This document shows positions 9,965 through 52,012 of a DNA stretch of 64,000 nucleotides, in pieces; within the stretch, counting starts at the first letter, position 1; the number at the start of each line of letters is the position of its first letter. The translations under genes and the position numbers were made by a program. Location of the stretch: NCBI GenBank assembly GCA_008632985.1, contig QPGO01000004.1, positions 434,001 to 498,000 on the forward strand. Reading direction: 5' to 3'. The notes below the pieces were generated by a model. That model made no database searches and was not told the DNA's origin. It worked only from the letters and a program-made list of their open reading frames with translations. This stretch comes from Psammoneis japonica (lineage: Eukaryota).

Positions 9965-10000
9965 TTGTGCACACACACCACAGAAGGCAACAAGTTCAAG

Positions 10001-11154: not shown

Positions 11155-11217
11155 CTTGCACCGCAAGAGGAGTCTTGCGCTCTGCTGGACATTGGGAAGC
11201 CCAGAAAAAGGGCCAAA

Positions 11218-14200: not shown

Positions 14201-14300
14201 AAATTAGAACAGCCCTGTGTTGGACCGCATGTGATGACAACGGCACACACTGATGGCACAGTGCAGATCAAACGCGGTGACGAACAATGCCGTTTAACGA
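11218..14300 (+). pseudogene. pol: Gypsy pol (protease, RT, RNase H, integrase), disrupted
   Basis: Protease LLDSGTS; RT RLPMG and TCVDD; RNase H DASNSQLG, AFYSRKL, TDHKNL; integrase HLLHPG...CETC, DRGSEF, NAIVER. Frame break at ~12030-12065 and stops after 14096. Confidence 0.93.
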
Positions 14301-14330
14301 CTGACTCTAATGTGCAATTAGGGAGGCGAG

Positions 14331-14709
14331 TGCAACATGCGTTGTCATGCGCGCATTGCACATGTGTGTCTGCATGTCAAACAAAATCATGTTCCAATCA
14401 CACGTCAATCGTGGGTTCGCACGAAGTGCAGATCGATCACACAGAAGTGATCGGATGTCAAGAATCGCAAATGCGACAGTGCGATGATGTTGACATCTCA
14501 TGTGTCAACATCAATCGCATCCGGACAATCTGTTGTCACGATCACATTCTCCGAAAGGCCTTTTGTCTGCAGGAGCAGTGCAAAAGGTTTAGGCCATTGA
14601 GAACCCATTCGGAGAAACCCAAAATGATTGCGCAGAAATGATTCTCACAATTTTCACTTTTCGAACTTTGTTCTGCTTTCGTTTGCACTCGTTCTTTGAG
14701 CATGGTGCA
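14331..14709 (+). repeat. Gypsy 3' LTR
   Basis: Direct repeat of 9586-9964, preceded by the PPT and followed by TSD CCTG. Confidence 0.93.
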
Positions 14710-20545: not shown

Positions 20546-23296
20546 ATGGTGAAGAATCGCAACTGGGAAACTCGCACCGAGATTGCTGAAGCACGACGCG
20601 TGGCAACAAGGCAACGCAAGCAACGACGAGAGAACAAAAAAGGTGCAAAGAGTATGGTGTATGATCTTTTCAACATGATGGATCGACATTGCGGGGCTTT
20701 ACAGCGTCGATCAGCAGAAGGGGTCTCTACAACGATTCATATCTGGACAGACACTGAACATTCCGATGGACCTTCTTTGGAGGAGATTCTACTGTATCAG
20801 CGATATGCCACTGAAGAAAAGAAGTTAAAGCAACGTCGGCGCTCCTCTTCTTTTAATGAGGCGTCTCCAAAAAGTAGAAAGGGGAGGACAAGACGTTCTT
20901 GTTCCTTTAGCGAGAGTGGTTCAGGAAAGAAAACGACACGAAAAAACAGTATGGACGAAGAAGAAGTTGACGCACCGCGACTGTGTCGGGATCAGTTTTT
21001 TAACGGAGAATGCAAGAATTTTCAGCGTAAGAATGGCTGTTGCAACCATGTTCATTACGGAACAGACCTTTGTCCATCACTCGCAAGCGTTTTACAGAGC
21101 GATGAATCTCTAACTATGTCTCTGGACGCTGCAGTCGCTGGTGAATCGTTGATTGACACTGCTGTAGACCCCGAGGAAGGTGGAATGGAGATGGTGTATT
21201 ACTTTTCAATCGAACTTTTTGACAAGGGTGATAATGATCAATCGATTAGCGTCAGTGAAGCAATATCAAAGGCTCTTTTCGGAAAGTCATGCGGTCTCGG
21301 TAGCATGGTCTATGTGGCTATCGGCAAAGTTTTGGTATTTGACAGAAATAGAGACGGCCTCATCATGTCAGATAACGGGTTTGCTGTGGCTGTCCTAGGT
21401 GACAAATCGCGCCGCTTAAGGTCGGTGTCCGTAGAAAGTCATGGTGCAGAAAACCAAACGTGCAGTGAAGACGCTAGTGAGAATGACAATGACGAGTGTT
21501 ACGAACTTCAGCTTCTTCCTGGTCCCCTGTTGGAGTATATTCTGACTTTTCTACCAGTCCCTAGTGTACGTGTCATGACTGAGGTTTGTCGAGTCTGGAG
21601 TCGAGAGATTGGTACGAATTCGCCTTCCTTGTGGAAGCACCTGTTACAACGTCGAAAATTCCCGTCGCCCGACGAATCCACAATGTCAGAGGAAAACGCG
21701 AGAGACGCTTACCGAAACGAATATATTAAACACCACGGGGTGATGAGAAACGTCAAAGCGATTGGAACTGCTACCGCTGCACTCACTTCATTGCCAGGTA
21801 GACCAGCGATAAGCAAAGAATTTGTAATGCAATCCTTCTCTTCACGCCGGGGTGCCCCACAAGAGCCAAACTGTTGCGTTGGTATAAAAATTTGGTCCCC
21901 ACACCGAGTTCTCGTGGCTTACGATTTCGACTGCACCTTACGCCTCTTTGAAACAGTGGCAAAACCAGTCAGTGAAGACAATGACAGCAGCCCCCGGTCA
22001 TGCAAAGAAGTGTTGTGTCTTCGTGTGGCCAACAACTCTAGACGAAAAACCTGGACCTTGTTTGCCTTCGACTTTGACGACGATATGATTGGTTGTCTCT
22101 GTAGGGCAAGTACAGAAGAAAAGGATTCGTCCTTCTTGATCGTAATTGGCAGGGAGGATTTCCTTTGCGCAAACGGCCACGTCGAAGAAGGGACTGCACA
22201 CGTAATCAATCTTGGCGAAGCCCTTCTCAACTATATTCTCAGTTCCGACGTCGTCGACCATTCCACGCTCCGCCTCCTAGATTATATTGGAGAGCACGGT
22301 TTGGCATCTTTGGATGTGAATGCCTCTACAGCTGTTACGGCATGCGGATACGGCCGTTTATGGTGGAGATGTCCATATCGGTGGATGGGGACGACTTGTT
22401 GGTTCTGGATCGAAAGCTCGTTCTTGTATCAGCTGCAGCCGGAGCCATTGTTTGGATGGGAAGCACATACGATGCTCAGGTTGACGAACTGTCATTACTT
22501 GATATGACTCTGAGTCATGCACAATTCTGTTTGACAAGGGGCCGTCTCACAACCTGTACACTTGTTGCTGCGTCAAGGGATTTCGAGGAAGTTGTGTTGG
22601 TGGACGTGGACTCGCAGGCCATGTAAGCCAGAGACGTGTCTCAGACGCGATATCTGAAGCAGCAACAGGTTTCTTGTTGACGACTGGGACACCGCGTACG
22701 TAGTGCCATGTCCACGTACCCTTACTCCCACCGACATTGTGCATGTTAAAAATTTGTGGCGAGAGAGGGGGGGCAAGATAGAGCGAAAGGCTCTCTTGAT
22801 GTTCTACCCTTATGCAGCTGCTACCTCGGAGGTGTCGGGTATAACATTTGAACTAGAAGGCATGACCCACGCTGCCCGGATGGAATCTTTTGGAGACGAA
22901 CACGTCGTAGTCCTTGTCTGTGTCTCGGAAGTTGCACACGACGGTGATTTTGAATTTCGACAAGAGTCAATGAACGCGGTTGTCGTACATGTACCGACCC
23001 GACAAGTGCTAGGTCGCATTCGCCTCTATAGGAATGTTGATTGGTATATTCCCCAAAACCCCGAGATTCACACACCCCTCTTTCTTGATGTCGCTGGCGA
23101 TACGATTGGAGTAGGGTATGCTTGGAAGGGGGTGGTGATGACTGGCGAAACGATCAGGTCTGTTGGCTACGAAAACCAGCTCGGATGTGGGAGGGAGAGT
23201 AACAGCGCCAAGAAAAAGAAGAAGAAAAAAGGCAAAGGCAACAAAAGGGGTAACAAGAAGGATGCGTTTGTTCGAGGAATCAGCCTTTCTGGTTGA
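20546..23296 (+). CDS. F-box protein with CCCH-like zinc finger (paralogue A); split by apparent frameshifts near 22360 and 22620-22700
   Basis: LCRDQFFNGEC...CCNHVH; F-box LPGPLLEYILTFLP...VCRVW...LWKHL; basic C-terminus KKDAFVRGISLSG. ORFs 20546-22507, 22165-22626 and 22703-23296 are colinear with the paralogue. Confidence 0.75.
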
Positions 23297-26011: not shown

Positions 26012-28950
26012 TCAACCCCGCAAACTCATGCCCCTTGCAAAACCATCCTTCTTGTTGTCCTTGTTATTAGACCGGCGTTTCTTTTTCTTCTTCTTGGTGC
26101 TAACACTTGGACCGTGCTCGTCGTGTGGAGTAGTTTCACCCAATGCGCGAACGGTGTCTCCGACCATAATCACACCCTTGTTCGATACAGCCACGCCTAG
26201 AATCCCATCCATGCCTGACATGAAAATGTTGCACTCACCGAAAACGCCTGTGCGATGATCACGATAATGGTTTGTCTCAGTGAGGATGACTCTTTCAACC
26301 TGCTGACGGGTTGGCACATGAATAATGATAGCCACGGTGCTTTGATCATGCTCGAACTCATCCACGAGGCCGACGGTCTCAACGGTGCAGAATCGACTGA
26401 TAATGACAGCGTAGTCTCCAACACTTTCAACGCAACAATGGTGACAGTCCCGCCATCTTCCACCTAATTCCGATTTTAGTCCACTTTCATTGAACATCAG
26501 CTCGTCGGAGGACCGAGCACGTTTTCTTGCTGTCTGTGAAACGAGAAAAAAAGGATGCGGACAAACAGTTCATAATCAGCGGTTTGTCCTCCCACTCCAT
26601 AACAGGCTGACTCCACCACTACAACGTCAGATCCAGAAATTGTCACCAAAGGTGCAGAGACGTTGTTTGACCTCAACCTGCCATAAACGGATCGAGTCAG
26701 GTCCACGGTTTCACCTTGGGGAGAAACTTGAATCTCCGATTCTGTACGTGTGACTTGGACGAGCGATAAGGATCGTCCCGTCGAGTCTCCTCTAAACGAG
26801 TTTACCATGGCAAGAAGACACGACGGCTGATTCCTCCGGAACCGACTGGCTTCTGTTCACGAAATATGCGTGACTCGCCACTGCGTCATGAAGAGGTCTA
26901 TCCATCATACAAACGACAGCACCAGTACTTAACGATACCGCAACAAGTTTGCGACAAACAGTTTCGTCAAATTCTTCTTGAAATTGGGCATCAAAATCAT
27001 GCATGTCGAGATCCACCTCCATGAGAGCTAGTCCGTTACAGCAAACAACTGCTTTGCAACGCAAACGGATATTGACATCGGAGGCACCTAAAGTTTGTGT
27101 AGTCTCATTGATATCTGATGTCCATTCAAAGGAGAAATCAGCATCATTCTCGAGGTATCGGCGAACTTCGTCACATATGTTGAAAACATGAAGACTGGTG
27201 TCATCAAGGTCGAAGGTACCGTCGTTTGTAGAGTTACCACTTTGGCAAAGAAAGTCTTCACGATTGATTGCAACCAATAGCATGTCTGCTTCTGACCTTT
27301 GATCAGACTGAGCAATACACAGACAAACAATGACGTTGTCATCAATGTCAAAAGAGCGCAGAGAGCAAAGCCTCCTGCTCTTTCTGTATGGGGACGCAAC
27401 AGCACATACCACCTGACGACAAATCTTCTTAACACCACCATCGCCTGGCTTGGTAGATGCCTCAAAAAGACGCAATGAACAATCCTGTGAGTACCCAGCT
27501 AGAATGCGATTTGATGACCACACCTTGACTCCGATACATGAATTGTTGTTATCAGGGGCTCCGCGACGAGAAGAAAACGCTTGAGCTACCCAATCCATCC
27601 CTTCGTTTCGAACCACTCTTCCTGAGGACTGCAGTGGAACCATTGCCTCTTGAACTCCCTGTAAGGTTCTCACTATTTTGTAGTGAGACACAAATGCATT
27701 GCGATATAGAGTCGTAAGCACTTTCGTGTCGACTTCTTCATCTCCACTTTGTGTCGGCTCCGCAGGAAGAGGCCAGTTCCGTCGCGAAATCAAGTATTTC
27801 CACAAATCTGGAGAGGTAGTACCAATCTCGTCGTTCCATGAGCGAGACACCCGTTTCATGGTGGACACGCATTGGTCTGGTAGAAAGTAAGAATGTTTTC
27901 CAGGACTGGCGCAAACAGAGCTATTGCTTCTCTCGAGGTGACAAGCCTTGCATCTCCACTCAACTCCCGTTTCGGTCCTTCGAGATTCCTACCGGACAAC
28001 GTCGCAAGGACTTCTTCACCCGACAACAAAAGACCGTTTCGATACCGATCGTATAGCAAGACACCATCCGTGGAAGCATAGACGACACTGCCTAACCCAC
28101 ACGACCGATTCGACAAAGCCTTGGATACAGTGTCGAGTACGGTCTGATGGTCGACATCCGTTTCTTTATTGTTGGTATTCACTGCGGATGAATCACCTTG
28201 ACCTTGTAAAGACGTTTCAGTACCATCGCCCGTGTCGTTTGATAAACCAACAGAGAAATGATAAAGCACGTCGATGCCTCGTTCCGGAGGAGTTTCGTCG
28301 TCTTCTGATCCCAAGCGAGAAGCGACATCTAAGGAACGTGCCAACTCATCTCTAGATGCTTCTGAATTCGCACCCACAACCCCAAACACGGTCTCTTTAC
28401 TAGATATGCAATGCGCGTAGTCACTGCATTTGCTGCCACCTTTTCGATTGCTCTGTTCCGGAAAACAAGTTCCAGTGAAAAAATGATTACAACAAAGCTG
28501 TACTCCAGGTCCAGAAGCATCCTGCGCTTGATCATTTTCAGTCTCATGAGACGCCTGTTTACTTCGTGGATGAGCTTTTGGTTTCTTCTTTCCACCACCA
28601 CCATGTCGTTTTTCCCTTTCTTGGACTTCGCCTCGTCGTCGTTGTCGTCGTCGTCAATGGAGTTGGACCGTGCGCTCGATGATGCCTTTTGCCGATATCC
28701 TTCTCGTCATGCTCCGCATACAACAACTTGCTCTCATCGTCCCAGTCAGATGGACACGTGTCTACCCAAAGGTGCAAAACAATCTTCTTTTTCCAATGTG
28801 AGCCATAGTAGTGTCGATCCAACGCCATTAAAAACTCGTACATGTTGGTTTGTACAAACCTCGATTTTCACGCTGTTGTTTTCGTTCCTTGGCAGCCACC
28901 TTTTTCGCTTTGGCGCTCTCAACACGCTTCTGCCAATTCCCGCGAACCAT
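26012..28950 (-). CDS. F-box protein (paralogue B), several apparent frameshifts
   Basis: Starts MVRGNWQKRVE (ATG 28950). Shares SCGLGSVVY, LENILTF, EIGTTSPDLWKYL, QAFSSRRGAP and KKDGFARGMSLRG with 20546-23296. Confidence 0.7.
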
Positions 28951-35501: not shown

Positions 35502-36284
35502 TTTTTTTCTTATTCTCGACTAGTAATTCACAGTCAAGCGCAAAAGAGTATTACATAAACTTGAAAGGCAACAACAATGCAGAATTGCTTGCCGATACCG
35601 AATGCCTGAAAAGAAAGAGTTCTGGTCTCAACATTGTTTGAACGAGAAAACGTCACGAACAGGCGGCACGTGGCACCTCGTACAAATTCTACACAGGTTT
35701 GGAATTTTGAATGCCACGTTGACGATGGATGGAGCACGTCGGCTTGTGAGCGGACACAGCACAGACCACATCTTCAGGTTCGCTTGCTTTCACATCATCG
35801 CATCCATCACGCGAAAGATGATCATTGTGACAGCGCTTTTTCATTTTTAGGCAGGGCCCTGGGGGATGACACTCTCTCTTACTTGCAGGTCTTAGCGTGC
35901 ATTGCCACTCTCTGGCATGCAGCCACCCACTGCAAATTGCAAATCACTTGACACTTTTTGTGTGTGTGCGTCAAAGTGCGTTTGATCATGCCAAACAGGA
36001 AAGCTTCCTTTTGCTGGTGGCTCATTTCGCACAACAACAAAAGGCCGCATGGGAAGGTGCGCAATCTTCTTGCACACTCTGCCTTGGGTGGTGGCCAAGC
36101 ACAAAACACACCACAACACCAGATCACCATGGCCACAAACACTGCGCACCAACCATGTCCATGTGCATGGACCAAATGCCAAAGCATGGTGAGATGTTGA
36201 GCACTGTGATGTGGAAGAAGAGAAGAAGGCCCTCTGGGAACAAAATTCTTGGTTGTCCAGGAAAGCCCAGCTCTGTGGCACAGC

Positions 36285-37558
36285 TGTTGGAACATTGCAG
36301 TGAGAGGCAGCAATTGAAGGACAAAGAACAGACAGCATTGCAGTGAAAGACACACTGACCATTGTGGATGACACATGGTGAATTTGTGCTGGCAAGTCGG
36401 GTTGAGTGGCGGGTCTTGTGCCAGCACTTTTTAGCTTCTGCACCTGGTTGACATGACAACAGAGAGCATGCCAAAAGAGCCAGAGCATCCATCAAGTGAC
36501 ACTGCATTGGAGAAGGACAAGGCAATCTGGGGCAAGCAATGCAATCACTGTGCAAAACAGAGCATGATCTGCAAAGCACAGAGGGTGGCACAAAGGTGTT
36601 TGGTGCAATCCAAGAGTGCACAAAGGCCATCAATCACAAGGTTGAAGGAGCAATGGAGTTTACAAGAGTTGCAAAGGAGTGAATGTGGCAGTGCTCCTGT
36701 CACAAATTCTCAAGTTGATCTTGCTCAATGCCAATGAGAAGAGGCACTCACATCTCCAGGTGGTCAAGCCTTGGAAGCAGCTGGCACTCATCACACATCA
36801 AGACAAAGGAGAGGCACTCAAAGATTGTTGCAGTTGGCCAATGAGCATTGTTGAGATGGTGGAAATGTCCTGGTGTGGTGGAATCATTTTGAAAGAAATT
36901 GCTGAGAAAGAAGATGGGTTCAGCAAGGATGCTGACAATGCCCAGAACAAAGAAAGGAACAAGTTGTTAGCAGCAATGCTTGTGGAAGGCACCAAGGAAC
37001 ATTGGCATGTCTCAACAGACCTGCATTGGCAGTTTGCACTGGGGGTTGACAGTTGTCCCAATTCAGCCAAGGAGGTTTTGCAGGTGTTGGGCATGCATGA
37101 GGCCAACAAGAAACCTGAGGGCACAAGTTTTGCACAAAACAAGAAGAAGCAGATCAAATGCTGGAAATGCAACAATTTTGGGAATGTGAAAAAGGATTGT
37201 CCTTTGCTCAACAATGACGCTGATGATTCATCAGCAGAGTCAGATGGTGCAGGCCATGGGAATCAGTGGAACAGTTGAAGTGGCATTTTGGATGGCATGG
37301 TTTCCACGTGTCATCCTCCTGTGCTCAATGCACACATGAGGCCAATCAATCAACAGCTTGTGCAAAAGAGTGTGTTGGAACATTGGGGTGAGACTGAGAG
37401 GCAGTTTTTGCAGAACAAACACAGACAACATTGCAGTGACAGACATGCTGACAATTGTGGATGACATGGTGAATTTGCACTCACAACTTGGGTTGAGTCA
37501 AGTTGTGGGTCTTGTGCTCACTTTTGAGCTTCTGCACCAGGCAGTTGACATGACAACA
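36285..37558 (+). mobile_element. Short gag-only Copia-type LTR element (~1.3 kb), degenerate
   Basis: Diverged direct repeats 36285-36461 and 37373-37558 (TGTTGGAACATTG...ATGACAACA), AAAAGAGTG before the 3' copy, and internal QFALGVDSCP...IKCWKCNNFGNVKKDC gag zinc knuckle. Confidence 0.7.
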
Positions 37559-38869
37559 GTGGTTGACAGCATTGGGAATGTGTTTGCAAGCCAGATGGTG
37601 AGATCTGGGTTGGTGAGACCAAGTGTGTGCCAGTTGGCAAGCCACAAAACTCTGACAATGGTGGTGGACAAAAAAGAAGAAGCCAGTTGAGGTTTTCATT
37701 CGAAACAAAGTGGAGGAAGTCAAGAACAGGACAGGCATGAAGAGTGCTCACATCTTTCAAGCACTCCAGAAAGGCACTGTCCCTCACCAGCCGCAGAACA
37801 GAGAGTGGTGTGCTTGATTGCTTGCAAAAGAAAGAGCAACACACACCACTCTCATGCTGAGCATGCAGACCCAGTGACAAAGATTGTTGCTTCTCAAGTG
37901 AAGGATGTTGTGCTGTCAGTGAAAACTGCAGCTTGCCATGTGGCATCACATGCATGAAAAAAAGAACAGGCCAAGGCAGTGTCTCTGACATGACCAAGAA
38001 AGAGCATGGCCACAAGTTTCTATTTGAAGAATCAATGACAGAGAATGAGGCATGCCACAGCTGTTGTGGCTGCATGGTTGCCCTGCTGTTGGTGAGCCAA
38101 ATGGAAACAGAAATGTTGTGCAGGGGAGCAAGAATGAGCTTGAGGGCTGGCAGGCTTTGGTGGATGAATTTGACAACTTCAAACAGAGTGGTGAACCACA
38201 AGGCGGACCTGGTGGCAACACCAGTTTCATCAACCAGTGAGGCCCAAGGAAAAGACAGCATGCGTTCAATGCCATTGTGCATGGTTTGGGTGTCTGTTGA
38301 ATGCTGGAGATGTTTCTGTTGCAGAGCACCCAATCAAATGCACTGACAGAATGCTGCTGTAGAATGTTGCAGCTTTGACAAGAGCTGAGACTGCCTCCTT
38401 TGGCTTCAGTTTCTTGCCACTGTGGATGTGGTGTGGTGGAAACAAAAGCAAACAATCACACACAACACCGTGCTTTTGCAATTCTCTTGTTTGATGATGC
38501 ATCTAAATGCATGCCTTGTGTGATGTGTTGTCAAAAGCTGTTTTCTGAGCTGGCAGCCAAGATGGCACGCATGCTTGGTCACATGAATGCCTGCAATGTG
38601 CTGACCCCAGTTTGGGCATCACAAGTGGGGCCAGCACTGCCCACCTCAGCAACATCTTTGATTGAGCTGCCAAAGCCCAGCTCTAGGAGCAACTTTGGCA
38701 TGCTCCAACTGAACTCAAGCAAGAGGACATGCAGCTCCAAAAATGAGGTGCAAGCAACTCTTGAATGGCGCATCTGAAGACATGGCTGTGCACATGTCAA
38801 ATGACTTTTGTGGTGACTCATCCCACCAAGAGTGCATTGAACAGGCTAGAAAGTTTGTGGGTGCATGAG

Positions 38870-40450
38870 CATCAATGGCTGTTCTTCTGAATGGAGCCTT
38901 GTTTAACTCTTGAGTGCTTGGGGTGTTGAAAAAGAGCTGTTGTGATCACAACAACCATCTCAACCTGGGGCGCCAACCTGGAAGATGGAGGTGGCAAACC
39001 TCCTGCAAGAGGATGAGGATGGCCAATCCTCTCCTTCATCCAGACAAACTTCCAGACAAATTTGGGCCACCTCAACTGACATTTGAGGCTGGACCCAGGG
39101 ATGTGGTGAACCCCTTTGATGGGATGGCTGTCCACAGCAATGGGGTGGTGGGGCTGCTGAGACTGTTCAGCTGACCACCCAGCAGGTTGCAGCTGACCAA
39201 CACAGAGGTGTGCCACTTGCCTTCTGATTTGCCAAGAACTCCTGCTGCAGCAAATGAAGTTTCTGAATCTGACAACCTGTGGTGGGCCATTTGCCCTCAT
39301 CCTCCTCAGGGCAGCTTTTTCCATTGTCCTCATGCTGGTGGTTTGAGCAAAGACCTTCTGGATCTTGCCATCCCCCCCCCCTCACCCTTGCAGAAGCCCA
39401 GAGATGGCAGTGCACAAGCACCTTGTTGACAGATCTCTGGGTGAAGTCAGAGCCAGAGAAGTGCTTGGAGTGTTCAACACCAATGCTTGCCCATTTGCCA
39501 GCATCAATGCAGCCAACAAAGCCACCAGAGCCAGGCACCATCTGCACATGCTTCTTGACAAACCATCAAAATCTGCGGCCCTGATTTCCAGTGCTTTGCA
39601 CATGAATCCCTCAATGCACCTTTCACACCAGAGGTTGTTCATCTCAGTGCTTGTGTTGTTGGCTGTCATCAGCAATGCAGTGCATTGAGTGAGTCAGGGC
39701 CTGCTGAATGACATTGAATGCAAGTTCAGCAGACCCATGGTTGGCTGCAGGGGGCTTGTGGGACAAGCCTGTGGCTGGCACCATGGATGAGCTGTGCTGC
39801 CAACTGTTCCCTGCAAAATTCAAAGAAAAATGTGAGCACATTGGATTGCATTCATGGCATGGAAAGAGACAAATGTCTCTCATTGGTTTGCTCACATGTG
39901 TGACAACAGGTCATCAAAAGTGAAACACCTCCTGCCATGCTGAGTGGCATGGGCACCTGGGCCAACATCTTGCAAGATTTGGCAAAATGAGTGTCACAAA
40001 TTGACTTGCCACAGTTCTGCCATGGCTTCACATTTTAACCCAGCACTCCACTTGCTGGCCCTGCTGACCAGGACATTCCAAGACTGCAATTGGCATGCTC
40101 AGCTTCTTGAAATGACCATGCAGCCCAATCTCATCTGGCAGATGCACACACCAGTTGAGCCACTTTCTCCCAAAGTTTTGACTGCACGACTCAGCGAACA
40201 CACAAAATTCATCCAAATCAATGTCACCCCAATGCCTGACACCAACCACCCAAATCAGGTGTGGAATCCAAGACAGCAGTGTGTCTTTGCTGGCACTTGT
40301 GGAGCTCTTGACTGGCATGCTTGGGCAGAGCCATGCTTTTGCATCAACCCAAGAACCTTGGCCCATGCTCTCAAGTGATTTGAGATGATGGGCTGTGAAA
40401 GTGGCCTTGGCAGCAACACAAAAATGCAATGATCTCAGAAGCCATTGCCT
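38870..40450 (-). mobile_element. Possible degenerate DIRS/Ngaro-type RT-RNase H relic
   Basis: Fragments FVGCIDAGK, LSDSET and HHIPG resemble RNase H motifs of tyrosine-recombinase retroelements; frames are broken. Confidence 0.3.
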
Positions 40451-40945
40451 TTGGAAACAGAGCTCTCAACTGAGTGTGCAAGCATGAGTGCATTGTGTCC
40501 TTGGAGCACTTGTTCATGATGGTGGTTTGTGGTTTCCTTGTTGTTTAGATTGATGCAAATGGCCAAGGACCAGTTGTTGGTGTTTCCAAAGGCAAATTGT
40601 CCTGTTGCTTGGGCACTCTCACCTTTGCTTGCTGCAGCCAGCACTGAATGATGTGGGCTTGATTCTGCCCCAAGTGCAAGGTGACCATGACCTTGGTGCA
40701 GAAGTCATGGCCACAAGCCTGGAGGATGTTGAAAGTGCTGTTTTCTCCACTGAGTGCGCTTGTGCCTCCTCCCCACTTGTGTCAGGACAACATCATTGTT
40801 GTGCTGTCATTGCCTCCTGTCATTGCGGTCCTTGTTTTGTGCACACAAATGTTGTTGGTTGGTGTCAGAGGGAGAAAATGTGATGGCAGCATCTTTCTCC
40901 ACAGCCTGGTGCAAATGAGCAATGAATGGACAATTTCCTCTTTAA

Positions 40946-41374
40946 CCCTTCAACCACCATGGGAGCAAATCTCCATGGGTGGAGATCTGCTCTGCTTGCA
41001 GATGTGTGACGTGTCATGCACTTTTATGACAATGTGATGTACACAGCATAAAAATGTCATGTCCTGTGCAATCTGCGCAAAAGCACCGCATTTGCTCCAA
41101 GGGTGTGGCATTGTTGCTCTGTTTGTGACAGCAATTGATGACAACCGCCATTGTCAATGGTTGAGATTTAGTTCCTCTCTGTTCTAAAAGTCGACATCGA
41201 ACTTTCTAAATTACAAAAAGGTTGCCCCCAGATTTTTGGCAAATGCGCGTTCCAAAACAAAATCATGCGAACAAAATGTTGTGCACATCTGAGGTTGCTT
41301 CATTTGCTGTGTTTGTGATGCAAGCAAGCAAATCTCCACCCGTGGAGATTTGCTCAAGTCTGGTGGTTGAAGGG
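40946..41374. mobile_element. piggyBac-type MITE (429 bp)
   Basis: Perfect 14-bp TIR CCCTTCAACCACCA / TGGTGGTTGAAGGG, subterminal palindromes (GCAAATCTCCA..TGGAGAT), flanks TTAA (40942-40945) and TTGA (41375-41378). Confidence 0.8.
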
Positions 41375-41421
41375 TTGACAACCAATGAGAGGTCTGAACT
41401 CTTCCTGCACCCCTGATCCTG

Positions 41422-41698
41422 TGATGGAAATTGAAGGCAAATGGCAAGAATTCAAACAATGACTCCTTGCTGCTGTCTAAATGGCAGATGAGTCTCCGCT
41501 CAGAGACAGTCACAGGAGCCGAAGGACGTGCAAGTCAAGTGTGATCGGGCTACTGTCATTGTTCTTGTGAGCCTTGTGGCTCGAAAGCAAACCACATCGC
41601 GCGTGAACGCGCGGAACTAAAGCACACAAAACTGTGCACGGTAAACTAAACAGCGCGCGATGCTTCGCGCGCACCCAAATCCTGTTCAAATCCTGTCA
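41422..41698 (-). repeat. Copia 3' LTR (TpA-converted copy)
   Basis: Direct repeat of 48257-48532. Confidence 0.95.
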
Positions 41699-44600
41699 CT
41701 CCCCAGTTTGCTTGAGGAGCCACAGAAACAGATTTGACTTCGGATGGAATGAAGTTCCAGAACATGAGGGGGCGGAGAAGGTCCCAGATTTGGGAGCAAC
41801 CCCAATGCTTGCTGAGAATGTCAGCAGGGTTGCGGGAGCCTTCGATGAAGTGGAACTCAAGGTGACCAGAGGCAATTGCCTCACGCACACGGTGGAACGA
41901 CAGTGCAGTGTGTCGCTTGTGTAACTTGGAGTGCGGGATGGTGGCACTGTCTACAACCGACTTGTTGTCACCGAACATGTAACCAACGTTACGGATCGGG
42001 ACGCCAAGGCAGCGCAGGGTGATGCGCAGGTCGACAATCTGCTCAACACAAGTCCTTGCGGCAACAAATTCAGACCCGCAGGTCGCAGTCTCCACGGTGG
42101 CTTGTTTCTTAGAGAACCAATCAGCCGGGAATTTGTTGAGGAAGTGGAGCATTCCCATGACAGAGCGTCCGGTGAGCATGCAATGGTACAAGTTTGCATC
42201 GACGCAGTGGGTGGCAGTGACGAACTTGCCAAGGGGCGGTGGAGCGTCCTTCGGGATCATCTCTTCTGCTTCACCATACACGGAATGCATCCATTCATAG
42301 GCCGGAGCAGGGAGATCCGAACAGTCGGGCTCTTCCGTGCGAACGCGGAGAGCACCATGTCGCATCTTGGAGAGGCACCCACAGACGCGCTTGGCACGAT
42401 CCAAGTGGCCTTGACGGGGCGCAGCTCGGAAGCTAGAGAGTGACATGACGGCCGTGGCAATGTCAATTCGACCAAGGGACACTGCCCATTGGAGTGAACC
42501 AACAAGAGACTGGAACTTGTGGATGCCATCGGGTCCCAGCAGTTCGGAAGTGTCCAGTTCGGGGTGGTCACCCTTCTCTAGAGGTGACAGGGCGTTGGTG
42601 GCAGGTTTCTCCCCAAACAGTCGGGCACAGCTGTCGACCATGCGCTCGATGTACTTGCGCGGAGACAGGCACAAGGTTCCGTCGGGTTCCCGGGAAAAGT
42701 CGCAACCCAGATGGAACTCAATGGGTCCCGCACCCTTGAGCTTGAACTTGTGCTTTTCCGTGAGGGTGTCGACGAAAGATTGAGGGTCCTTCATGGCAAT
42801 GGCGAGGTCATCCACATAAACGGCAATGTGTTCACAGTGGTCGCCGTTCCTGCGCATCCAAATGTCGGGTTCGGCGCGGCAGGGGAAGAAGCCTTCAGCT
42901 CGCAGGCAGTCGGCGAAGCGCTCATGCCAGTGGAGACCGGAGCTGCGCAGTCCATGCAGTGCCTTGTGGATGACAAGGATGTGTCCTTCGAGTTTGCCGA
43001 ACTCGGGTCCAGCTACAATGTAAAGCTTCTCCTTGGTGGTGGCTTCAAGGCAGGCATTGCCAATGTCGGTGGCCCATGTCTCCAACTCGTTGAGTTCGGC
43101 CAGGAAAATCATCAGCCGAAGGCCACGGAGGGAGACTACTCCGGAGCAGACACTGTCGACAGGTGCGTCCGTGAGGTGCCCGTCGGCTACGAGTCGTGCC
43201 TTGTGGCGACCGTCGTGTTTCACGTCGTGCACCAGGTGCACTCGGATCTTCTTGTGTCCCGCAGGAGGAGTGGAAGACTTGAAGGGCCCGCAGTCATGGA
43301 AGACTTCGTATTCGTCGAGTTGGTCCATCTCAAGATTAGTTGTGTCTCCCCACTTGCGGTTGCCGTTGCGTTCGTCTAGTGACATGGCGTGTTTGTAGTT
43401 CCGGGGAACTTCGCATCCATGCTTGTGGCGAGGTGCAGTGCGGAAGGAGCGAAGCTTGGCTTGGTTGGCCATGCGAAATGGCTTCTTTTGGCGCCTCGCG
43501 ATGGTGCGGAACCGCTTCCAGCCATCCGTGTCGAGGAGTCCGTTCTCTCGTGCATAGATGGCACAGGTGACGGGGTCGTCCTTGGCGATGATGGCAAGAG
43601 GCTCGGACGTGATCTCCCCACTTTCCCATTCAAGCATGATGTTGTAGCTGGAGCCTTTCCAGGTTGGGTCGTGAGGCTTCAGAGGTCCTTCGTGTGACAC
43701 GATGCGTCGAAATTTCCAAACAGTGGTGTCTTCGTCTTCTTGCTCAATGTGATTCATGATGTCATTGTGGGCAAGGACTTCCTCGTATTTGTCATTGTTG
43801 ACAGAGCAGACGAACTTAGTGAGCTCGGGATTGCCGTTCACTTTCCATTCGTGGTCTTCGACGGCCTTGACGATGCGAGCTCTGTGGCGTTGTCCGTCCT
43901 CTTGTGGCTGCATGAGGAAGGCACGTCCAATGATGTCTTGCGGATCGAAAACTGGCATCTTGGGTGTCCTGATCTCCCCATCAGGAGAGTCAACGGGGTT
44001 GTCGTCATGGCGAGATTTGATGATGGGTTCAGGTGGCTCCCCATCAGGAGGATCAAGACGCAGGTTTCGGACGGCAGGATCGGGGGTAGCGGAGCGGACA
44101 TTGGACCGGCAGAGGATCTTCTGATTCTCGTCAGATAGAATCTTGAAGGTCATCTGGTGGCCGACGTGCTCAGCAATGCCAACGAAGCGTCCATGCAACT
44201 CACGGGATTCGGACGGCCAATCGGAGTCATCGAGGTGGAAGCACACGGGTTCCCACCAGTGAAAGCGAAGCAATGGGCTGATGTCCGGGGTGGAGCCAGT
44301 GAGAGTCTCAAGGGGCGTGCGCCAGTGGAGACGTGGGGACGCTGCATGGTTGAGTGTGAAGCACACGTGCATGAGCGCCAGCAGCCATGCATGGGCGGGC
44401 GAACCAAAACGATCCATGACAGTGTTCGCCATGCGCTTCACGGTCTGGTGTCGATGCTCGGCAAAGTTTTGGTGTTGCTGGTGAGGCTCACTTTGCCAGC
44501 TAGAGATGAAGAGGGCGCGTAGGATCCCGAGCACTTTGTTGCTGATCTCAACTTGAGCACGGTCGCCAATGAGTTTGGATGGGGCACCACGTTCACGGAT

Positions 44601-45750
44601 CTGATCCTCGAGTGTGTTGACAAACTCTTTGTCCGTCTTAGTGCCGTAGACGTCAGTGACGGTAGACTCGGTGCCAACAAACAGTTGGGCGCTGGTGCAA
44701 CCAGAGTCGACGGCCGGGGTGTCGGCACAAACGGTGTCAGTGGCGATGGGCTCGTTGCGGCGGTGCACATTAAGGGCGGGGTTGGGTGATTTGCAGGCCT
44801 TGCGAAGGTGTGTACCGGCGGGCATGCGGGCGCACTGCGTGGTGCAGTCAAAAGTACGACGGACCGCATCGGCAGGTGGGAAGCCAAAGTGAGGCCGAAG
44901 AGACTCGAAGGGGGGGTCCTTGGGCTGTACAGTGCGCTCCGGAGGTGGAACATCATCGCCCTGGGGGCCAATCGCATGCAGATGACACTCGTAGAACACA
45001 TCGTCGTTCGGAATGAGGTGATCATCGAGGGCGGACGCGTGATCGGCAGACAAGGAAGCGGACATGATGGTCTCGTTGACAACGACACGATGACGGCAGT
45101 TGCCGCACTCGTCAAACAGGTTGGCAGTGGGATCGTCCTGCAGGTCAGAGATCGCGTCGCACCACTGGTCGTCGTCAGTGACAGAGTGATCGAGGACGGA
45201 AGGGTCCCATGTGTCATCACCGGTGAGGATGACATGGGGCAGGGTGTCCCATTCGGCGTCAGTGTAAGGTCGCATGGCAACACAAGGCAGGCCAGCCTTG
45301 ATGTCAATGGGGATGACATAGCCATCAGGAGTGGCAATGCGTTGCAAGCCGTTGGGCACCTTGACAGAGCGATCGTTGACATCCTGTTTGCACCATTCGA
45401 GCTGGCCGCAGGAATGGATGGTCTTGCCCTTGCCCGTGCATGCGCACTGATGGAGCATGGCGATGACGGGACCACGCTGGGTCTCAACAACGGCACCAGC
45501 GGTGACAATGGGGATGTCCACCAATTGATGATCGTCAATGCCCTGAACGTCGACTTGGCGAGAGGTGCGTGCAATGACGCGAACGTCGTCGCCAGCAATG
45601 CCGCCGTTGGCCCCACGATCGACTAGAGCGCCAGTGCGTGTGGAGCGATGAGCAGAAGCAGAGCAAATGACATTGTGGTTGTCAACGCGGCGGTGAGTGT
45701 GACCGTTGAGTTCTGTGTCATCTGCAGAAGCTGGCGGGGCAGAGGAAGCG
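41646..45750 (-). pseudogene. pol: Copia pol (protease, integrase, RT, RNase H): open frame but with many Tyr->Cys/His changes
   Basis: Protease LVDRGANGG (~45600-45625); integrase ATDTV, DRAQVE, HQNFAE; RT HKARLVA and YVDD; RNase H SEFVAA, GDNKSV, NPADILSK. Confidence 0.93.
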
Positions 45751-47314
45751 GCGGATGGCCCGGTCGACTGGCATTGGGGGCTTGGTTAGGAGACAACAGA
45801 CGTTGCAGATCACCGGGTGGCAGTGGCTTGCGCTTGGTGAGGTGCGCCAGGATGGGATTGTCCGAAGTGGCATCCACATGTGGAGCGGAGTCACCAGAGT
45901 CAGCAGGAGTCGTGTTGGACAAGTTGACATCACCGTCACTCCCAAGGCGTTGGTCGTGAAGGTTGGCCGTAACAGACTCATGGCAGTTGCTGGCTCGCGG
46001 GTTGCGGGGAGGTGGACGAGAATGCTCAAGGATGATCGCCTTGGAGGAATCGGGCAACGAATCCCAGAGCCGTTGGTGGTCGGGAGGGAGACGTCTCCAT
46101 TGGACACCGGTGAGGCTGGGACCGCGGGTGCAGGCAGCATTGGCTTGAAGGACGTCAACGTCGCTGTCAATGTCGCAGAACACATCGTCGGACGGTTCCT
46201 CGGAGTGGACGTTGTGTGCGCACATGGCGCGTCGGGGAGCTCGAGGTGTCGTCTTGGGTTGAAACGTGCTGTCGTGCTGAGCTGCGGCGGAGAGGAGCAA
46301 GCCACAGCATTGATCGCATGTGAGGCTCTTGCCACTCTGCGCACGATGCTGATCAGCTTGGTTCTTGACAGCACGGAGTTCCTCGACAGGGTGCACGGCA
46401 TTCTCGAGCATGACGCGCTTCTGTCCTTCAGAGAAGTGGTCGCTGGCCGGGATGAGTGCCTCGCACTTGCGCAACTGATCTTGCCAATGAAGGATGAACC
46501 CGTGGGTCGGACCTTTCCAAGTGCCATCACCAAGACGCGCGGTGGTGAGGTGCGTGAGCAGGGTGGAGGACTCGACAGATGCGCGGGTGGAGGCAAGCGC
46601 GCACTCAGACAAGGAGCGGCAGACGGTCTGTGCGTCAGAAGACCCCACATTTTCGCAAATGAGAGCCTTGCCCTTGTCGGTGAGAAGGATGCGTTCGAAG
46701 ACGGCGAACATGTGCTTTTGCTGTTCAGCAAAGAGCAGTTTGTCTTCGGGGCTGGTCGGTTTGTACGACGAGTCTAGAATGCACTCGACGTCTTGGGCAC
46801 GGGCTTGTGCCACAAGTGAGGTGTGCCAAGTGTGCCACTGCTTGTCGGATTTGAGAGCCGTGAAAGCGGTGGGATCACGCTTGATGCCTCGCTTGAAGTC
46901 CCGCACCGGGTCGCGTGCCTTGGTCGGGTTGGTGACATGTGGAGGTGCAAGGGGTGAGCTGCCGATGGACACAGAAGACATGCAGTCGGGGCTGAGGTGG
47001 CAGGCAAGGAACTCGTCATGCGCAAACAAAGAGGAGTCATTGGCAACGTCAAGACCTTTGTGTGCTTTGACAATGTGCAGACTGACCAGTGCTGCTAACA
47101 TGTTCTTGTGACCACGGGGCAAAGGGATTGCATTGGTGCCGTTTTTGCACTCAAGCGAGTCGATTTGGGACGGCATGAACGTGAACAGTTCCTGACACGA
47201 GTCTGTGCCGTCTTGGGCCAAAGCCAAACGAAGAGGACTCCCAGCACCTTGGGCAAGCACGGTTCCAACCACGTGCTCGAAACCATCGGTTTGTTGCTGA
47301 CGAGTGAGAACCAT
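45750..47314 (-). pseudogene. gag: Copia gag; frameshift relative to pol near 45750
   Basis: ORF 45623-47344 with DFKRGIKRDP, AQARAQDV and LENAVHP. It leaves the protease frame upstream of LVDRGANG. Confidence 0.85.
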
Positions 47315-48256
47315 GGCAGACAAAGGTGGTGTCAGGACAATCAATTCTGGTTGGGAAGCGAAGGTAGACTCGAAACTTGGGTGAGAACAGACTTGACTTG
47401 AAATGGACTTGACTTGAAATCTTGAACTATCTTAAAATCAGAAGTCGCCGGGCTTTGTCACCCCGTTCGTTGTCAAGTGCTAAACTTCCCATCCGGTCCG
47501 CAGAGTTGTGCCGGCACGTCCGAACCCGCAGCCAGCGGCGCTTTGGGTTGCTTGCGAGCGGAGCAGCGGGTTGTAAACCCCTGCAGGTAAGCTGACTAGA
47601 GGTGGACAAGACCCCCGAACCGTTCTCATTTTTGTGTCGGTTGGATTTCCCGATCAGGCTGGCCAGTTGACGCAGGCGTCAGGCGCTGTGGACGAACGAA
47701 CAAACGCGGGAAAGCACCCTCGCCCCAACGCAGGCTGCAATCACGGCTGCCTGCTCTCACAGTCGTCCTCGTGGACCTAGCAGAACTGTAGAGCACCAGT
47801 GGTCCGGGGTAGATCAGGTGCAATGGACTCGGTGTGCTTGTAGAGTGGTGGCAAAACCGCAGTCCGAAGAGTGGATAAAGGTTCTTGGCCGTGAAGACAT
47901 GTATATATATATATATGTCTTCAGCGACGAAGATCCTTGAATATGTAGGGTTCTTGACCGTTAACCGAGGAATAGGTATATAAAGGGATGTTGATCAAGG
48001 ATAGACTTGGATATGACCGTTGAATATAAGTCTTCAGCGATCAAAGGTAGTATAATCAATCCAGATATCCAGCGGTAAGGAGACTTGACGGTGACGTTAA
48101 CTTCCTGCCGATGCCCTGGTATTGAATGCGCGTAGACTTGCCGATGTATGTAGAATATATACGGAGGTCCACGTAGAATTGAAATAGCGTCGTTGGTAAA
48201 TCAACGACGACGATGGCGGTTGCTCAATGGGTTGACAATGAGCAAGACTGTTAATC

Positions 48257-48532
48257 TGATAGAAATTGAAGGCAAATGGCAAGAATTCAAACAATAACTC
48301 CTTACTGCTGTCTAAATAGCAGATGAGTCTCCGCTCAGAGACCGTTACAGGAGCCGAAGGACGTGTAAGTCGGTATAATCGGGCTACTGTTATTATTCTT
48401 GTGAGCCTTGTGGCTCGAAAGCAAACTACATCGCGCGTGAACGCGCGGAACTAAAGCACACAAAACTGTGCACGGTAAACTAAACAGCGCGCGATGCTTC
48501 GCGCGCACCTAAATCCTGTTCAAATCCTGTCA
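48257..48532 (-). repeat. Copia 5' LTR (largely unconverted copy)
   Basis: Direct repeat of 41422-41698 that retains TpA. Confidence 0.95.
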
Positions 48533-48539
48533 TCCTGAT

Positions 48540-51280
48540 TGGTGGCTCTGTCCACTCCCTGCCAGAGGTTGTGGGCAGTTTGACTTCAAAGAAGGCTTGC
48601 AGTCTCTTTCTCTGCTCCAGAGCAGGAGCACTTTGACTGCATTTGTTGGTTGGGGAAATTGCCTGGTGCACGTGCATGAGGGCTTCATGTGTGCAACATC
48701 ACCTGGTGGCACAGGAGGAGGGACAAATGCAGAGAGCATGGGTGGAACTGAGTCACATGGGCAGGGAAAGGGATGGGTCAGAGGGTGCTGGGGGCAGCAA
48801 GTTGGGACTGCATTTTGATGGAGCAGCAGATGAGTTTGTCAGCAAGTGACTTCTTGGCAATCACAAGGCTGAGGCTTTGAAGGCCCCAATGTGATGGAGC
48901 AGAGGTGTGGTGGGTCAAGCCAAAATGTGCAGCAGATGTGTTTTTCCAAGTGGCGGTGGTGGCAGCAGGGAGAATGGCAGATGGTGACAGCTGGGCACAG
49001 GTGCATGTGGCATGGGCGGCTGGATGTTTAAAGGAGGATTCAGTGGTCCAAGGACGGGTGGGTGGAGCATGGACCAGGTCTTCTGGATCAGCTCTGAAAA
49101 GGAGACGGCAAGCAAAGTGACCAGGAGCTGCAGGGGTCAGCTGCACCATTGCAAGAAGGGCAAGAGATGGATTTGAGGTGGTCAGGTGAGATGGGAAGCT
49201 GCAGCTTGCATTGTGGCATGAGGTGGAATTGATCCAGGGCCAGGCATGATTGTTGGGGTGAGGAGTGGGCAAGGGAGTGAGAGGGAGGCTTGCAAGTGGA
49301 GAGAGAAGGGGCAGGAATGCAAGGGTGACGTGTGCAGGGCCTCGTTGTTTGAGCATTTGCAGCTGATGTTGAAAGTGGGCATGGCACAAGGTGTGGGAGA
49401 GGTTGCACAGTTTGGGAATGTTTTTACAAGGGTGGTGAGGGAGGGCAGAGCAGGGTCAAGTGTTGAGATGGTGGTGGTGCCACACTGCAGAAAGACTTGA
49501 CAAAGGTGCAGGGCAAGGAACAATGTGAAGTGGCCCATGTGCAGAGGGAGCAAGCACAAAAGGGAGGTGGTCCAGGTGCAGCACATTGCTGGGAACAGGC
49601 CAGTTGAGAGAGGAAGAAGGGGATGGTGGAAGTGGTGATGGAGCAGCAACCTGCACCACCAGCAGATTCAGGGAGATGAGTGAGGAGCAATGCACAGGGT
49701 TGCAATTGTGCTGTGAGGGTGCTGCAGGAAGGCATTGCAGCAGTGCTGGATGTCTTGTTGGAAGGGCAAAGTCCAGGAAGCAAGGGGCAGTGGGGGTTGT
49801 CTGGGTCAAAGTTGAAGCACACGTCTGAGATGAGGAGGTGTGGGAGGGAGGAAGTGGCACAAGTGTGGCAGAGGGAGCTTTTGGTTTGGGTGTCTCAAAG
49901 GCAGGAGCAGAGTTGGTCAAGGTTGGTCCAGAAAGCAGAGGCTTTTTGGTCAAGGCAGGTGCAGGCAAAGTCAGGGCTTCCAATGGCTGGCCAGAGAAGC
50001 AGAGGCCAGCAGCAATTTCAGGGCAGACAGTGGGGGTTGTTGGCGGGGTTGAGGAAGGAGATTGCTTGGTGGAGGGTGACAGCACTTGCTGGGGGCAAGT
50101 TGGGCAAAGGGCCAGTGCCAGAGATGGAGGTGAGCATGTGTGTCTTGGAGTGGTTGAGGTGAATGCCATGTGGTGGGCCAAGCTCTTCAAGGTGTTGCAG
50201 GAACCACGATGATGCTGAAGATGAGGGCAGCAAAGGAGGGAGGAGCCAGTGGCTGGGCAACCCTGGGAGAGTTCGCTTCTGGTTGAGGGAAGGATTGCCA
50301 GCAACCACCAGGGTCACAGTGCCAGCACATGTTGGGGGTGTTGTGGCAGTGGTCAAAGATGAGAATGAGGTGATGGAAGGCTGGGGTTCTGTTGAGAAGT
50401 TGTTGACAAGCATCTTGGGAGCACTCATTGATGAAGTTGGCATGAAGAAGTTGGCAAGATTGAGAGTGAGGAAAGCGTGAGTTGGTGTGGCAGCATCAAG
50501 GCAGTGTTCAATGTTGGTGCATGTGGCATGTGCCAGGCAGTCAAGGCCTCCTTTGATGCCAGCACCATGCCAACACCAAACTGGCCATCAGGAAGCAGAC
50601 ATTTGGTGAGGGCAGGTGTGTTGATGGTCACAGTGAGGGCACCTGCGACACGGCAGACTCTGCAGCACCGCAGTCAATGGGGCGAAGTTTGACAAGGTCA
50701 GTTGGATCTTTGTGTGGGGCAACCAAGAAGTTGGCAGCAACAAGGGGTTGGATGTCTTGTGGGACAGAGCCAGTTTGAAGGTGGAGCACAAAGTCCTGGA
50801 AGGCAGAGAGGTGTGTGTTTTAGTTGGGGTGGCGGTTTTGAACAGGGCACGTGCTTTGAGGAGGTCAGTGGAGTCAGTGCACGGGCCAGCAGCAGTGCCA
50901 GGTTTGCACTTGCTGAGAGCAGCTAAGAGCTTGTCATCAGAGACACAGGGCAGGGATGGCGGGGGTGGCCGGAGAGCACTGTGTGGGAGGGGCAGGGGCT
51001 TGGGGTGGTGGTCGTGGGGCACCGGGCGGGTGCAAGAAGGCATGAATGAGAGGGAGGTGAGTGTCATTGATGGTGGCAATGGGGAGGTTGGAGGTGACTT
51101 GATGGTGAGCAGCACCAAATTTGTCAGCATCGGCAGATGGCTGGGCTGTGTGGCAACAGGCGGCGGAGGGGGAGAGACAGGGTGCATGGGTGGCAGCATC
51201 ACAGTGGGAGGGAAGGGTGTGGGCAGCATCGTGGAGTTCGCAGATGCGGTCTTGCTGGAAAAGCAGACGGTCATTTCTTG
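48540..51280 (-). mobile_element. Degenerate non-LTR retrotransposon RT (CRE-like)
   Basis: Across frames: KPGTAAGPCTD, HKDPTDLVKLRP, GQFGVG, SQGCP, FLQHLEELGPPHGIHLNHSKT and GQP, in RT domain order; heavily frameshifted. Confidence 0.65.
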
Positions 51281-51523
51281 GGGTTGACAGTGCCAGAGCG
51301 GCTGGGTGGAGCGAGGATGAGGGCTTCATATAAAAGCAGCAAACGAAGACTGTGAGGAATCATTTCAATCGAATTACTGTAGTCCGAGTGCCACAAATAA
51401 TCCAGATTTGTCGCGCTGACACACGAGGCACGACTCAAGGCCGCGCCACTCTGATGTGCACGTCTGCGACGCCTCGAAAGCAAAAGCGCCAGAATCATCC
51501 AGAAGCTCTCGCAAAGTCTGAAA

Positions 51524-52012
51524 GTGAATCTGTGTGCCATGACAGAAACAACCCAAGAAGACGATCCCATCACTCTTTTGCAGTGTTGCGACTGCCACGC
51601 AGATCTGCCCCTCACAGAGTTCTCGAGGACACAACGGAAGCGACCTTTGCCACGGTGTCAAGTCTGTTGTGCGTTGTTGAACCGTCGCGAAGCAAGGCAA
51701 CAGGCACCCATTACGCATGCCTATGGTCCAAACAAGCCACACTTTTGTTGTCCCTGGTGCGGTTTCAAGTGTCCGGGACGCTGTTGGTGCGTCTCCGACA
51801 ATGGAGATTATGTCACCCAGCGCAAGGTAAGCGGTAGAGGGAAACCCAGGATCAAGACGAGGGAACCCACTTTGGTGTGTACAACGTGCCAACAGGAACG
51901 ACCAAAGTCGGCCTATAGCCATCGTAACTGGAAACAGAAGCGCCGTGCACGCTGTAGAAACTGTATGAGTATTGCCATGAGAGTTTGTGCGAGCTCGTCA
52001 TGTCAAGAGTAA
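51524..52012 (+). CDS. Small Cys-rich zinc-finger protein with two Stc1-like CxxC..(F/Y)S..CxxC repeats
   Basis: CCDCHADLPLTEFSRTQRKRPLPRCQVC and CTTCQQERPKSAYSHRNWKQKRRARCRNC; Tyr codons are intact. Confidence 0.55.
   Translation: MNLCAMTETTQEDDPITLLQCCDCHADLPLTEFSRTQRKRPLPRCQVCCALLNRREARQQAPITHAYGPNKPHFCCPWCGFKCPGRCWCVSDNGDYVTQRKVSGRGKPRIKTREPTLVCTTCQQERPKSAYSHRNWKQKRRARCRNCMSIAMRVCASSSCQE

Follow-up and report, generated by a model that had tools for sequence, protein, structure and literature searches.

Loss of TpA dinucleotides from a Copia retrotransposon and other repeats in the diatom Psammoneis japonica

Introduction

Hypermutation at TpA dinucleotides has been described in the rhizarian alga Bigelowiella natans, in which, according to the accessible text of the preprint, Mettrop et al. 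found TpA>TpG and TpA>CpA changes at about 1000-fold background in integrated DNA of nucleocytoplasmic large DNA viruses and virophages (bioRxiv 10.64898/2026.01.13.699255). The same text describes two viral insertions, the large one being single-copy, reports that the spectrum arises de novo in mutation-accumulation lines, with the process on in 11 of 15 lines, and proposes deamination of A. Here we describe loss of TpA in the diatom Psammoneis japonica, based on a stretch of 64,000 nucleotides (GenBank assembly GCA_008632985.1, contig QPGO01000004.1, positions 434,001 to 498,000 of the forward strand; hereafter the window, to which all positions refer). A Copia element on the minus strand (41422-48532) carries two long terminal repeats (LTRs) that differ mainly at TpA. 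This element and its relatives almost certainly record a chromosomal process acting after insertion, in which A:T is replaced by G:C only at TpA, on either strand and one site at a time, in repeats and not in neighbouring genes.

As far as the accessible text of that preprint goes, the B. natans and diatom processes share an almost exclusive spectrum of TpA>TpG and TpA>CpA, rates orders of magnitude over background, confinement to foreign or mobile DNA with genes spared, and long-term depletion of TpA with gain of CpA and TpG. They differ in that TpA depletion is modest in B. natans (Rho 0.45) and amounts to erasure to about zero in the diatom, and in that the former concerns viral insertions in Rhizaria, whereas the latter concerns multi-copy transposons of several classes. 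CpG or LTR analysis has 0 occurrences in that text, and diatoms do not appear in it, whereas the diatom process shares its territory with CpG decay, spares a 5' end, and prefers TA followed by a pyrimidine. Judged by this likeness, the diatom process works like that of B. natans, whether or not the two share an origin.

Repeat-induced point mutation (RIP) of ascomycete fungi likewise consists of dinucleotide-specific transitions on both strands, restricted to repeats, with genes spared. However, RIP changes C>T and creates TpA and stop codons, whereas the diatom process removes TpA, raises GC, and leaves no stops. DNA deamination of the ADAT2/3 and TadA types (accessible text of PMC10354150; engineered base editors) has in common A>G with a 5' T preference, but it favours hairpin loops or single strands and accepts CA, whereas the diatom process has no hairpin link and no CA activity. 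No report of TpA hypermutation in diatoms was found in the open-licence PubMed Central (PMC) and bioRxiv literature. New here are the diatom lineage, the completion of the loss across transposons, its link with CpG decay, the sparing of the promoter end, and the preference for TA before a pyrimidine. Strict A:T>G:C hypermutation at TpA, so far measured in one rhizarian alga, is now seen in a second major lineage, one with genetic tools, and the erasure of transposon TA is seen there carried to completion.

Results and Discussion

The Copia element and its LTR pair

The Copia element has the features of Ty1/copia LTR retrotransposons, namely an RVT_2 reverse transcriptase domain (42630-43265, PF07727, E=8e-27), LTRs with TG...CA ends, a 5-base target-site duplication (TSD), and gag-pol coding regions. 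It is structurally ordinary and serves as a reporter; the novelty does not lie in the element. Its parts are as follows.

41417-41421, left copy of the TSD, TCCTG, an identical 5-mer on both sides
41422-41698, minus strand, 3' LTR, 277 nt, with 5 of 17 TA left and 12 changed to TG or CA
41699-41705, minus strand, short G-rich tract seen in the sequence directly before the 3' LTR
41646-45785, minus strand, pol frame, 1379 amino acids (aa), no stop, only 16 Tyr remaining
45623-47314, minus strand, gag-like frame, 563 aa, 0.2% Tyr, no Pfam match
47900-48256, minus strand, leader, TA-rich, spared from TA and CpG loss
48257-48532, minus strand, 5' LTR, 276 nt, with 17 of 17 TA kept
48533-48537, right copy of the TSD, TCCTG

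The alignment of the two LTRs contained 14 substitutions and one 1-base indel. Twelve of the 14 are TA in the 5' LTR and TG (7) or CA (5) in the 3' LTR, with 0 in the reverse direction (sign test, p=5e-4), exactly as counted in an earlier sequence-only reading of the window. The chance of at least 12 of 14 substitutions falling on TA bases is 9e-10. That reading had allowed for two or three other changes; apart from the indel there are two, and both remove a CpG of the 5' LTR (20 CpG in the 5' LTR, 18 in the 3' LTR). One is a G>A transition next to the indel at 48372/41538, and the other is a C>A transversion at 48343/41508. The two LTRs do indeed agree throughout their long CG-rich runs, but the claim that CpG-rich stretches are unchanged has to be restricted to these runs.

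LTRs of an LTR element are identical at insertion, and therefore the differences arose later. The insertion had been called young from its TSD; the TSD is intact, but five bases are weak evidence of youth. Better evidence is that the window copy has 1 private background change in 5166 columns outside TA and CG, while 59% of its body TA is lost, and that it shows 9 differences to its nearest sister copies. One further 5' LTR in the genome matches its 5' LTR without a difference.

The G-rich tract is presumably polypurine-tract-like, and we take the diatom CoDi label as a candidate name for the element. The gag-like frame and pol are not in register; a one-base gap near 45.76 kb is private to the window copy. 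Pfam integrase had no match in the eroded pol frame of the window element.

Ancestral state and timing of the loss

The LTR pair alone gives no direction and would also fit fungal RIP acting on the 5' LTR, and the direction was therefore taken from other copies of the family, which numbers some 270 insertions; the families examined in this study were multi-copy. A first set of 51 elements was fetched by LTR likeness; once the window copy was added, two LTRs were present in 50 of the 52 and a matching TSD in 44. From these, 43 full-length copies were aligned, three TA-rich copies were used as reference, and the other 40 were scored (spectrum columns, 6125 of 7106 of the alignment; element-body rates, 39 copies after one divergent copy was dropped). 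Because this set was biased towards intact 5' LTRs, a second set was drawn, independent of TA state, with a 26-base LTR word that contains no TA and matches the genome at 543 places. The first 100 listed word matches (contigs C1-C22) gave 40 candidate pairs, of which 38 had two LTRs and 32 a matching TSD.

At 194 TA sites, the 40 copies carried 3609 TA, 2435 TG, 1494 CA, 14 CG, and 32 other states, and both TG and CA were present at 163 of these sites. A single step leads from TA to TG or to CA, whereas TG and CA lie two steps apart, and thus TA is the ancestral state of the family, lost to TG or CA. The direction assumed in the sequence-only reading therefore agrees with the other copies. Only 14 CG doubles were observed against about 480 expected under independent mutation of both bases, which indicates that the process requires an intact TpA. 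In the pol frame of the window copy, compared with each of the three TA-rich copies, the commonest TA-linked changes were Tyr>Cys (12-16) and Tyr>His (4-10), and no stop was gained.

The excess of losses in the 3' LTR was also seen when the comparison was extended to further elements. In 43 LTR pairs of the first set, TA was kept in the 5' LTR and lost in the 3' LTR at 327 sites, with 16 in reverse; 46 sites had opposite outcomes, one LTR reading TG and its partner CA, CpG transitions numbered 45 and 11, and there were 19 other changes. The 32 pairs of the second set gave 162 versus 33 for TA, 78 versus 26 for CpG, 91 opposite outcomes, and 31 other changes. Among the 25 closest sister pairs, the outcome was the same at 980 sites, compared with 989 expected if independent, and opposite at 509. 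Sister copies thus agree no more than by chance, and the losses were not inherited from a master copy.

Spectrum, context and rate

The frequency of A>G per copy at TA was 0.33 in TAC, 0.23 in TAT, 0.15 in TAA, and 0.12 in TAG, whereas the 12 contexts outside TA ranged over 0.002-0.014 (AAN 0.002-0.011, CAN 0.004-0.014, GAN 0.003-0.006). C>T per copy was 0.018-0.033 at CpG and 0.002-0.011 elsewhere. In a fit of 136 sites, a 3' pyrimidine made TA loss about 2.7-fold faster, a 5' A also raised the rate, and no strand effect was left once context was fitted (strand term -0.03 +/- 0.15). The apparent strand bias (TG 2435 vs CA 1494) is accordingly accounted for by sequence context. No same-strand runs or clusters were seen among neighbouring converted sites, and nearness to CpG had no positive effect on conversion. 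A spacing periodicity was not accepted, as one of eight bins (131-170 bases) reached p=0.012. An ultraviolet (UV) photoproduct at TA gives TA>TT, and this origin is disfavoured by TA transversions at background level.

Over the element bodies, 3313 of 5365 TA and 775 of 16856 CpG were lost, corresponding to 0.48 per TA base and 0.024 per CpG base, with a median private background of 0.0013 per site. This ranking of rates was already proposed in the sequence-only reading. TA loss is therefore about 20 times CpG decay per base, and CpG decay itself is about 16-19 times background. Relative to background, estimates of TA loss span 70-400 times. The ratio of TA to other changes in LTR pairs was 69 without saturation correction, which is a lower bound, and about 360 in the 13 young pairs, resting on only 4 background events; the relative TA rate is about 360-380-fold background in young pairs and element bodies. 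TA loss stands at about 0.6 in nearly every copy.

Territory and the spared 5' end

The observed/expected ratio (o/e) of TpA is 0.0-0.2 in the repeat domains of the window and 0.4-1.0 in genes, with borders within a few hundred bases. CpG is lost too in the oldest repeats of the window and kept in younger ones. The domains and the second LTR element concerned are as follows.

36000-41416, older repeat domain hosting the insertion, TpA o/e 0.00-0.09 and CpG o/e 0.02-0.10 in 36001-41000
48538-51600, continuation of the older TA- and CG-erased domain past the element
9585-14709, plus strand, Gypsy-type element in a second TA-erased domain (about 6200-20200)

The spared zone comprises the 5' LTR and about 350 bases of leader (about 600 bp). 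In the window copy, 0 of 25 TA and 0 of 17 CpG were changed in the first 284 bases of the leader, and the first converted TA lies about 630 bases into the element. The leader was alignable in 29 copies of the second set, 13 of them spared and 16 not. At the 5' end, the 13 spared (young) copies had lost 11 of 318 TA and 1 of 221 CpG, with 4 other LTR changes, and the 16 non-spared (older) copies had lost 278 of 383 TA and 19 of 272 CpG, with 24 other changes. TA loss and CpG decay were correlated across copies (rho 0.48). These counts give an order of loss in which the body and the 3' LTR come first and the 5' end later, with CpG trailing throughout. The before/after contrast of an LTR pair arises because the first 600 bp or so is spared from TA and CpG loss in young copies; the polarised view offered by the sequence-only reading thus holds in direction, but it is clean only in young copies with a spared 5' end (13 of 29). 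The same LTR sequence fares differently at the two ends of an element, eroded at one and kept at the other, from which we infer that position or chromatin, rather than sequence likeness alone, sets the target.

At the 5' end, TA loss at first seemed uncoupled from CpG decay (14 copies, TA lost 0.45-0.51, CpG <0.01), but this was rejected as a sampling effect, because these copies were fetched by LTR likeness and the uncoupling was gone in the set chosen by the TA-free word. In 14 flanks the density of TA climbed from 1.4 per 100 bases to about 4 across 600 bases, but a spread into the flanks was not accepted because these had been picked for distant TA.

Other repeats were affected as well. 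The LTR pair of the Gypsy-type element differed by 16 TG-versus-CA, 5 TA, 6 CpG, and 3 other changes; its 380-base LTRs were both TA-eroded already, and its open pol frame of 677 aa has 0.4% Tyr. A small element at 40941-41380 has terminal inverted repeats of about 60 bases and 40 scored relatives (70-87% identity). These carry 1 to 37 TA per copy, which indicates that DNA-transposon-like repeats are hit too. The flanks of the fetched copies (loci L056-L106) were mostly TA-erased already (median TpA o/e 0.04-0.06), for which insertion preference or purging elsewhere are candidate readings. Within 49001-51000 the TA- and CG-erased DNA shows a strong G skew (0.39-0.47).

Several copies of a C5 DNA methyltransferase gene were found in TA-erased DNA (TpA o/e 0.01-0.11; L121-L123, L127, L130, L133, L134), some with stops; a mobile element may have brought them there, or they may have arisen by duplication and been eroded afterwards. 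Methylation of Copia elements by DNMT5a is reported from Phaeodactylum (PMC9998398).

Proposed mechanism

In the process recorded by these copies, a hit on one strand leaves a site that is no longer TpA, and a second hit does not follow. About 60% of the TA of a copy is removed before one ordinary change per kb, and old repeats end near zero TA. The process writes no stops and instead strips Tyr codons (to Cys or His) and TA-rich promoter words. We regard the best overall explanation, combining this process with its territory and chemistry, as about evenly balanced between right and wrong. The territory would be silenced, CG-methylated chromatin, for which CpG decay is the proxy, and the 5' LTR and leader would be open at first and reached later.

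Owing to the symmetry of TpA, A>G and T>C are indistinguishable from sequence. We place deamination first because of the 5'-T rule of the deaminase fold and because a hypoxanthine glycosylase of the AAG family was not found in the genome (no match; the control matched in 4 of 14 genomes). The agent may well be a zinc-dependent host adenosine deaminase of ADAT2/3, TadA, or ADAR fold, brought to silenced chromatin, converting the A of TpA to inosine that is copied as G, although we put this a little below an even chance. According to the accessible texts, a natural ADAT2 (amphioxus BjADAT2/3) deaminates A in DNA with a preference for hairpin loops (PMC10354150), and TadA editors prefer YA (10.1101/2024.11.19.623682). 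The genome contains 9 PF00383 matches, including ADAT2-like and TadA-like proteins and a deaminase-2-oxoglutarate (2OG)-oxygenase fusion, plus two A_deamin genes. The ADAT2-like gene (L112:1351-1956, +) has a long insertion between its two zinc-binding motifs. The fusion (L111:313-1785, -) joins a TadA-like deaminase to a 2OG-Fe(II) oxygenase and is conserved across diatoms; nucleobase salvage is our guess at its role. The second A_deamin gene (L153, G000:C79) is of ADAT1/ADAR fold, and its diatom relatives list only PF02137 and no RNA-binding domain.

ADARs prefer a 3' G. Several observations weigh against the deaminase and the territory proposed. TAG is the coldest TA context, opposite to the ADAR preference, and CA is near background, although TadA editors accept it as well. 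The DNA deaminases known so far need single strands, and same-strand runs are a frequent trace of their action; no such runs were seen, and predicted structures gave no preference for hairpin loops or unpaired bases (rho 0.02-0.05, p>0.4). An endonuclease V gene is present. No expansion of deaminases was seen in the genome and no chromatin-reader domain on any scanned frame, and the 2OG-oxygenase fusion and the second A_deamin occur across diatoms, so that none of the enzymes stands out. For methylation and chromatin state, CpG decay serves only as a proxy. In addition, TA loss in the element body showed no clear rise with background age (rho 0.25, p=0.12), as saturation or bursts might produce. 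A function in genome defence is plausible, although the family still reached its present size.

An unlikely alternative is gap filling in silenced chromatin by a Pol-iota-like Y-family polymerase. At gaps of a single base or a very short stretch, it would place G opposite template T where the preceding pair is T:A, giving TA>TG on the new strand. The genome has five Y-family loci (best matches Rev1, iota, eta, kappa, and eta), one of which, at L296:1192-2355 (-), has human Pol iota as its best solved match (E 2e-26; kappa 2e-14, eta 1e-12). Opposite T, Pol iota is reported to insert G in preference to A (PMC3031609); no source for a strict TpA requirement was found in the accessible literature. 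Short patches would yield unclustered events on two strands that track repair in methylated DNA, and converted TA had somewhat more CpG losses beside it (odds ratio 1.5, without correction for copy effects). However, T in TT, TC, and TG steps is near background, and TA changes are 20-fold CpG changes per base and not closer to CpGs; the gaps would therefore need another origin.

Eukaryotic N6-methyladenine (6mA) usually occurs at ApT. Of the same low probability is a modified base at TpA in silenced DNA, either methylated A or T altered by oxidation or in another way, which would miscode or decay in the manner of 5-methylcytosine (5mC) at CpG. The symmetric dinucleotide, independent single events, self-extinguishing course, and territory shared with CpG decay are what a mark plus decay would produce. 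Nevertheless, decay at 20 times that of 5mC would need an enzyme anyway. No Tet/JBP match was found in the genome, a weak negative with a silent control, and no search was aimed at adenine methyltransferases. Eukaryotic 6mA has also been reported as tied to active genes (10.1101/2024.10.28.620566).

Error-prone long-patch repair by Pol eta at its WA motif, triggered by T:G mismatches at methylated CpG, is very improbable. Pol-eta-like genes are present and the territory is common with CpG decay, but the Pol eta signature includes AA as well as TA and is clustered, whereas AA>AG is 0.002-0.011 compared with 0.12-0.33 at TA, with no same-strand clusters.

An assembly or base-calling artefact in repeats is even harder to credit. 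The uniform TA loss of about 0.6 would suit it, and no contig piece among those listed has the allele chain of the 3' LTR. On the other hand, a contig from run X1 matches 39400-41118 (1719 bases of TA-erased flank) with 0 differences, X1 holds 0.90 of the sampled 31-mers of 38500-42500, and each of the three runs (X1-X3) includes contigs with TA, TG, and CA alleles at LTR sites. These runs are from one sample, and the agreement is thus support rather than independent proof. CG doubles are also missing. Moreover, among 80 metagenome loci with relatives of the reverse transcriptase, 6 have TpA o/e of 0.01-0.13 (59-64% identity, from one contig series), and the signature therefore exists in at least one other organism. 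The closest metagenome relatives (72-77% identity) are without TA depletion (0.64-1.15). Tyr-less copies were more likely to be picked up by the query, and separate copies may have been collapsed during assembly, so that neither a presence rate nor absence is readable from these counts.

Editing at the RNA or cDNA stage of retrotransposition, or RIP (CA/TG>TA) on the 5' LTR, can practically be dismissed, even though diatoms have DNMT4, related to RID (accessible part of PMC9998398), because single sites yield TG and CA in different copies and both outcomes occur within each copy, opposite outcomes occur in LTRs of one element (91 cases in 32 pairs), conserved Tyr is lost and not gained, and non-LTR repeats and flanks are hit too. 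Retroelement editing of the APOBEC/ADAR type, which acts on one strand, in runs, and before integration, was likewise rejected, as the changes are on both strands, without runs, and after insertion.

Returning to adenine deamination, a bolder and doubtful extension is that diatoms and chlorarachniophytes share an ancient defence of the Stramenopiles-Alveolates-Rhizaria (SAR) group. A natural editor of adenine in double-strand DNA, guided by silent chromatin, would rewrite TpA of mobile DNA and disable elements by removing Tyr and TA-rich promoter words rather than by stops, while open promoters would temporarily shield young elements. If true, this shared defence would mirror RIP and would amount to an adenine base editor occurring in nature. 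To our knowledge, natural editing of adenine in DNA is barely known, and the enzyme would matter to both genome defence and base editing. The LTR-pair clock, the TA-pyrimidine context, and the spared promoter make candidate enzymes testable. LTR ages, repeat annotation, and long open frames mislead in such genomes unless TA sites are masked.

Other features of the window

An allelic or empty-site copy of the flank of the Copia element was searched for, and none was found. Among the sequencing runs listed as containing the region, none was of RNA. Two host frames in opposite orientation, 20546-22507 (+) and 26792-27859 (-), to which no function was assigned, are alike by eye.

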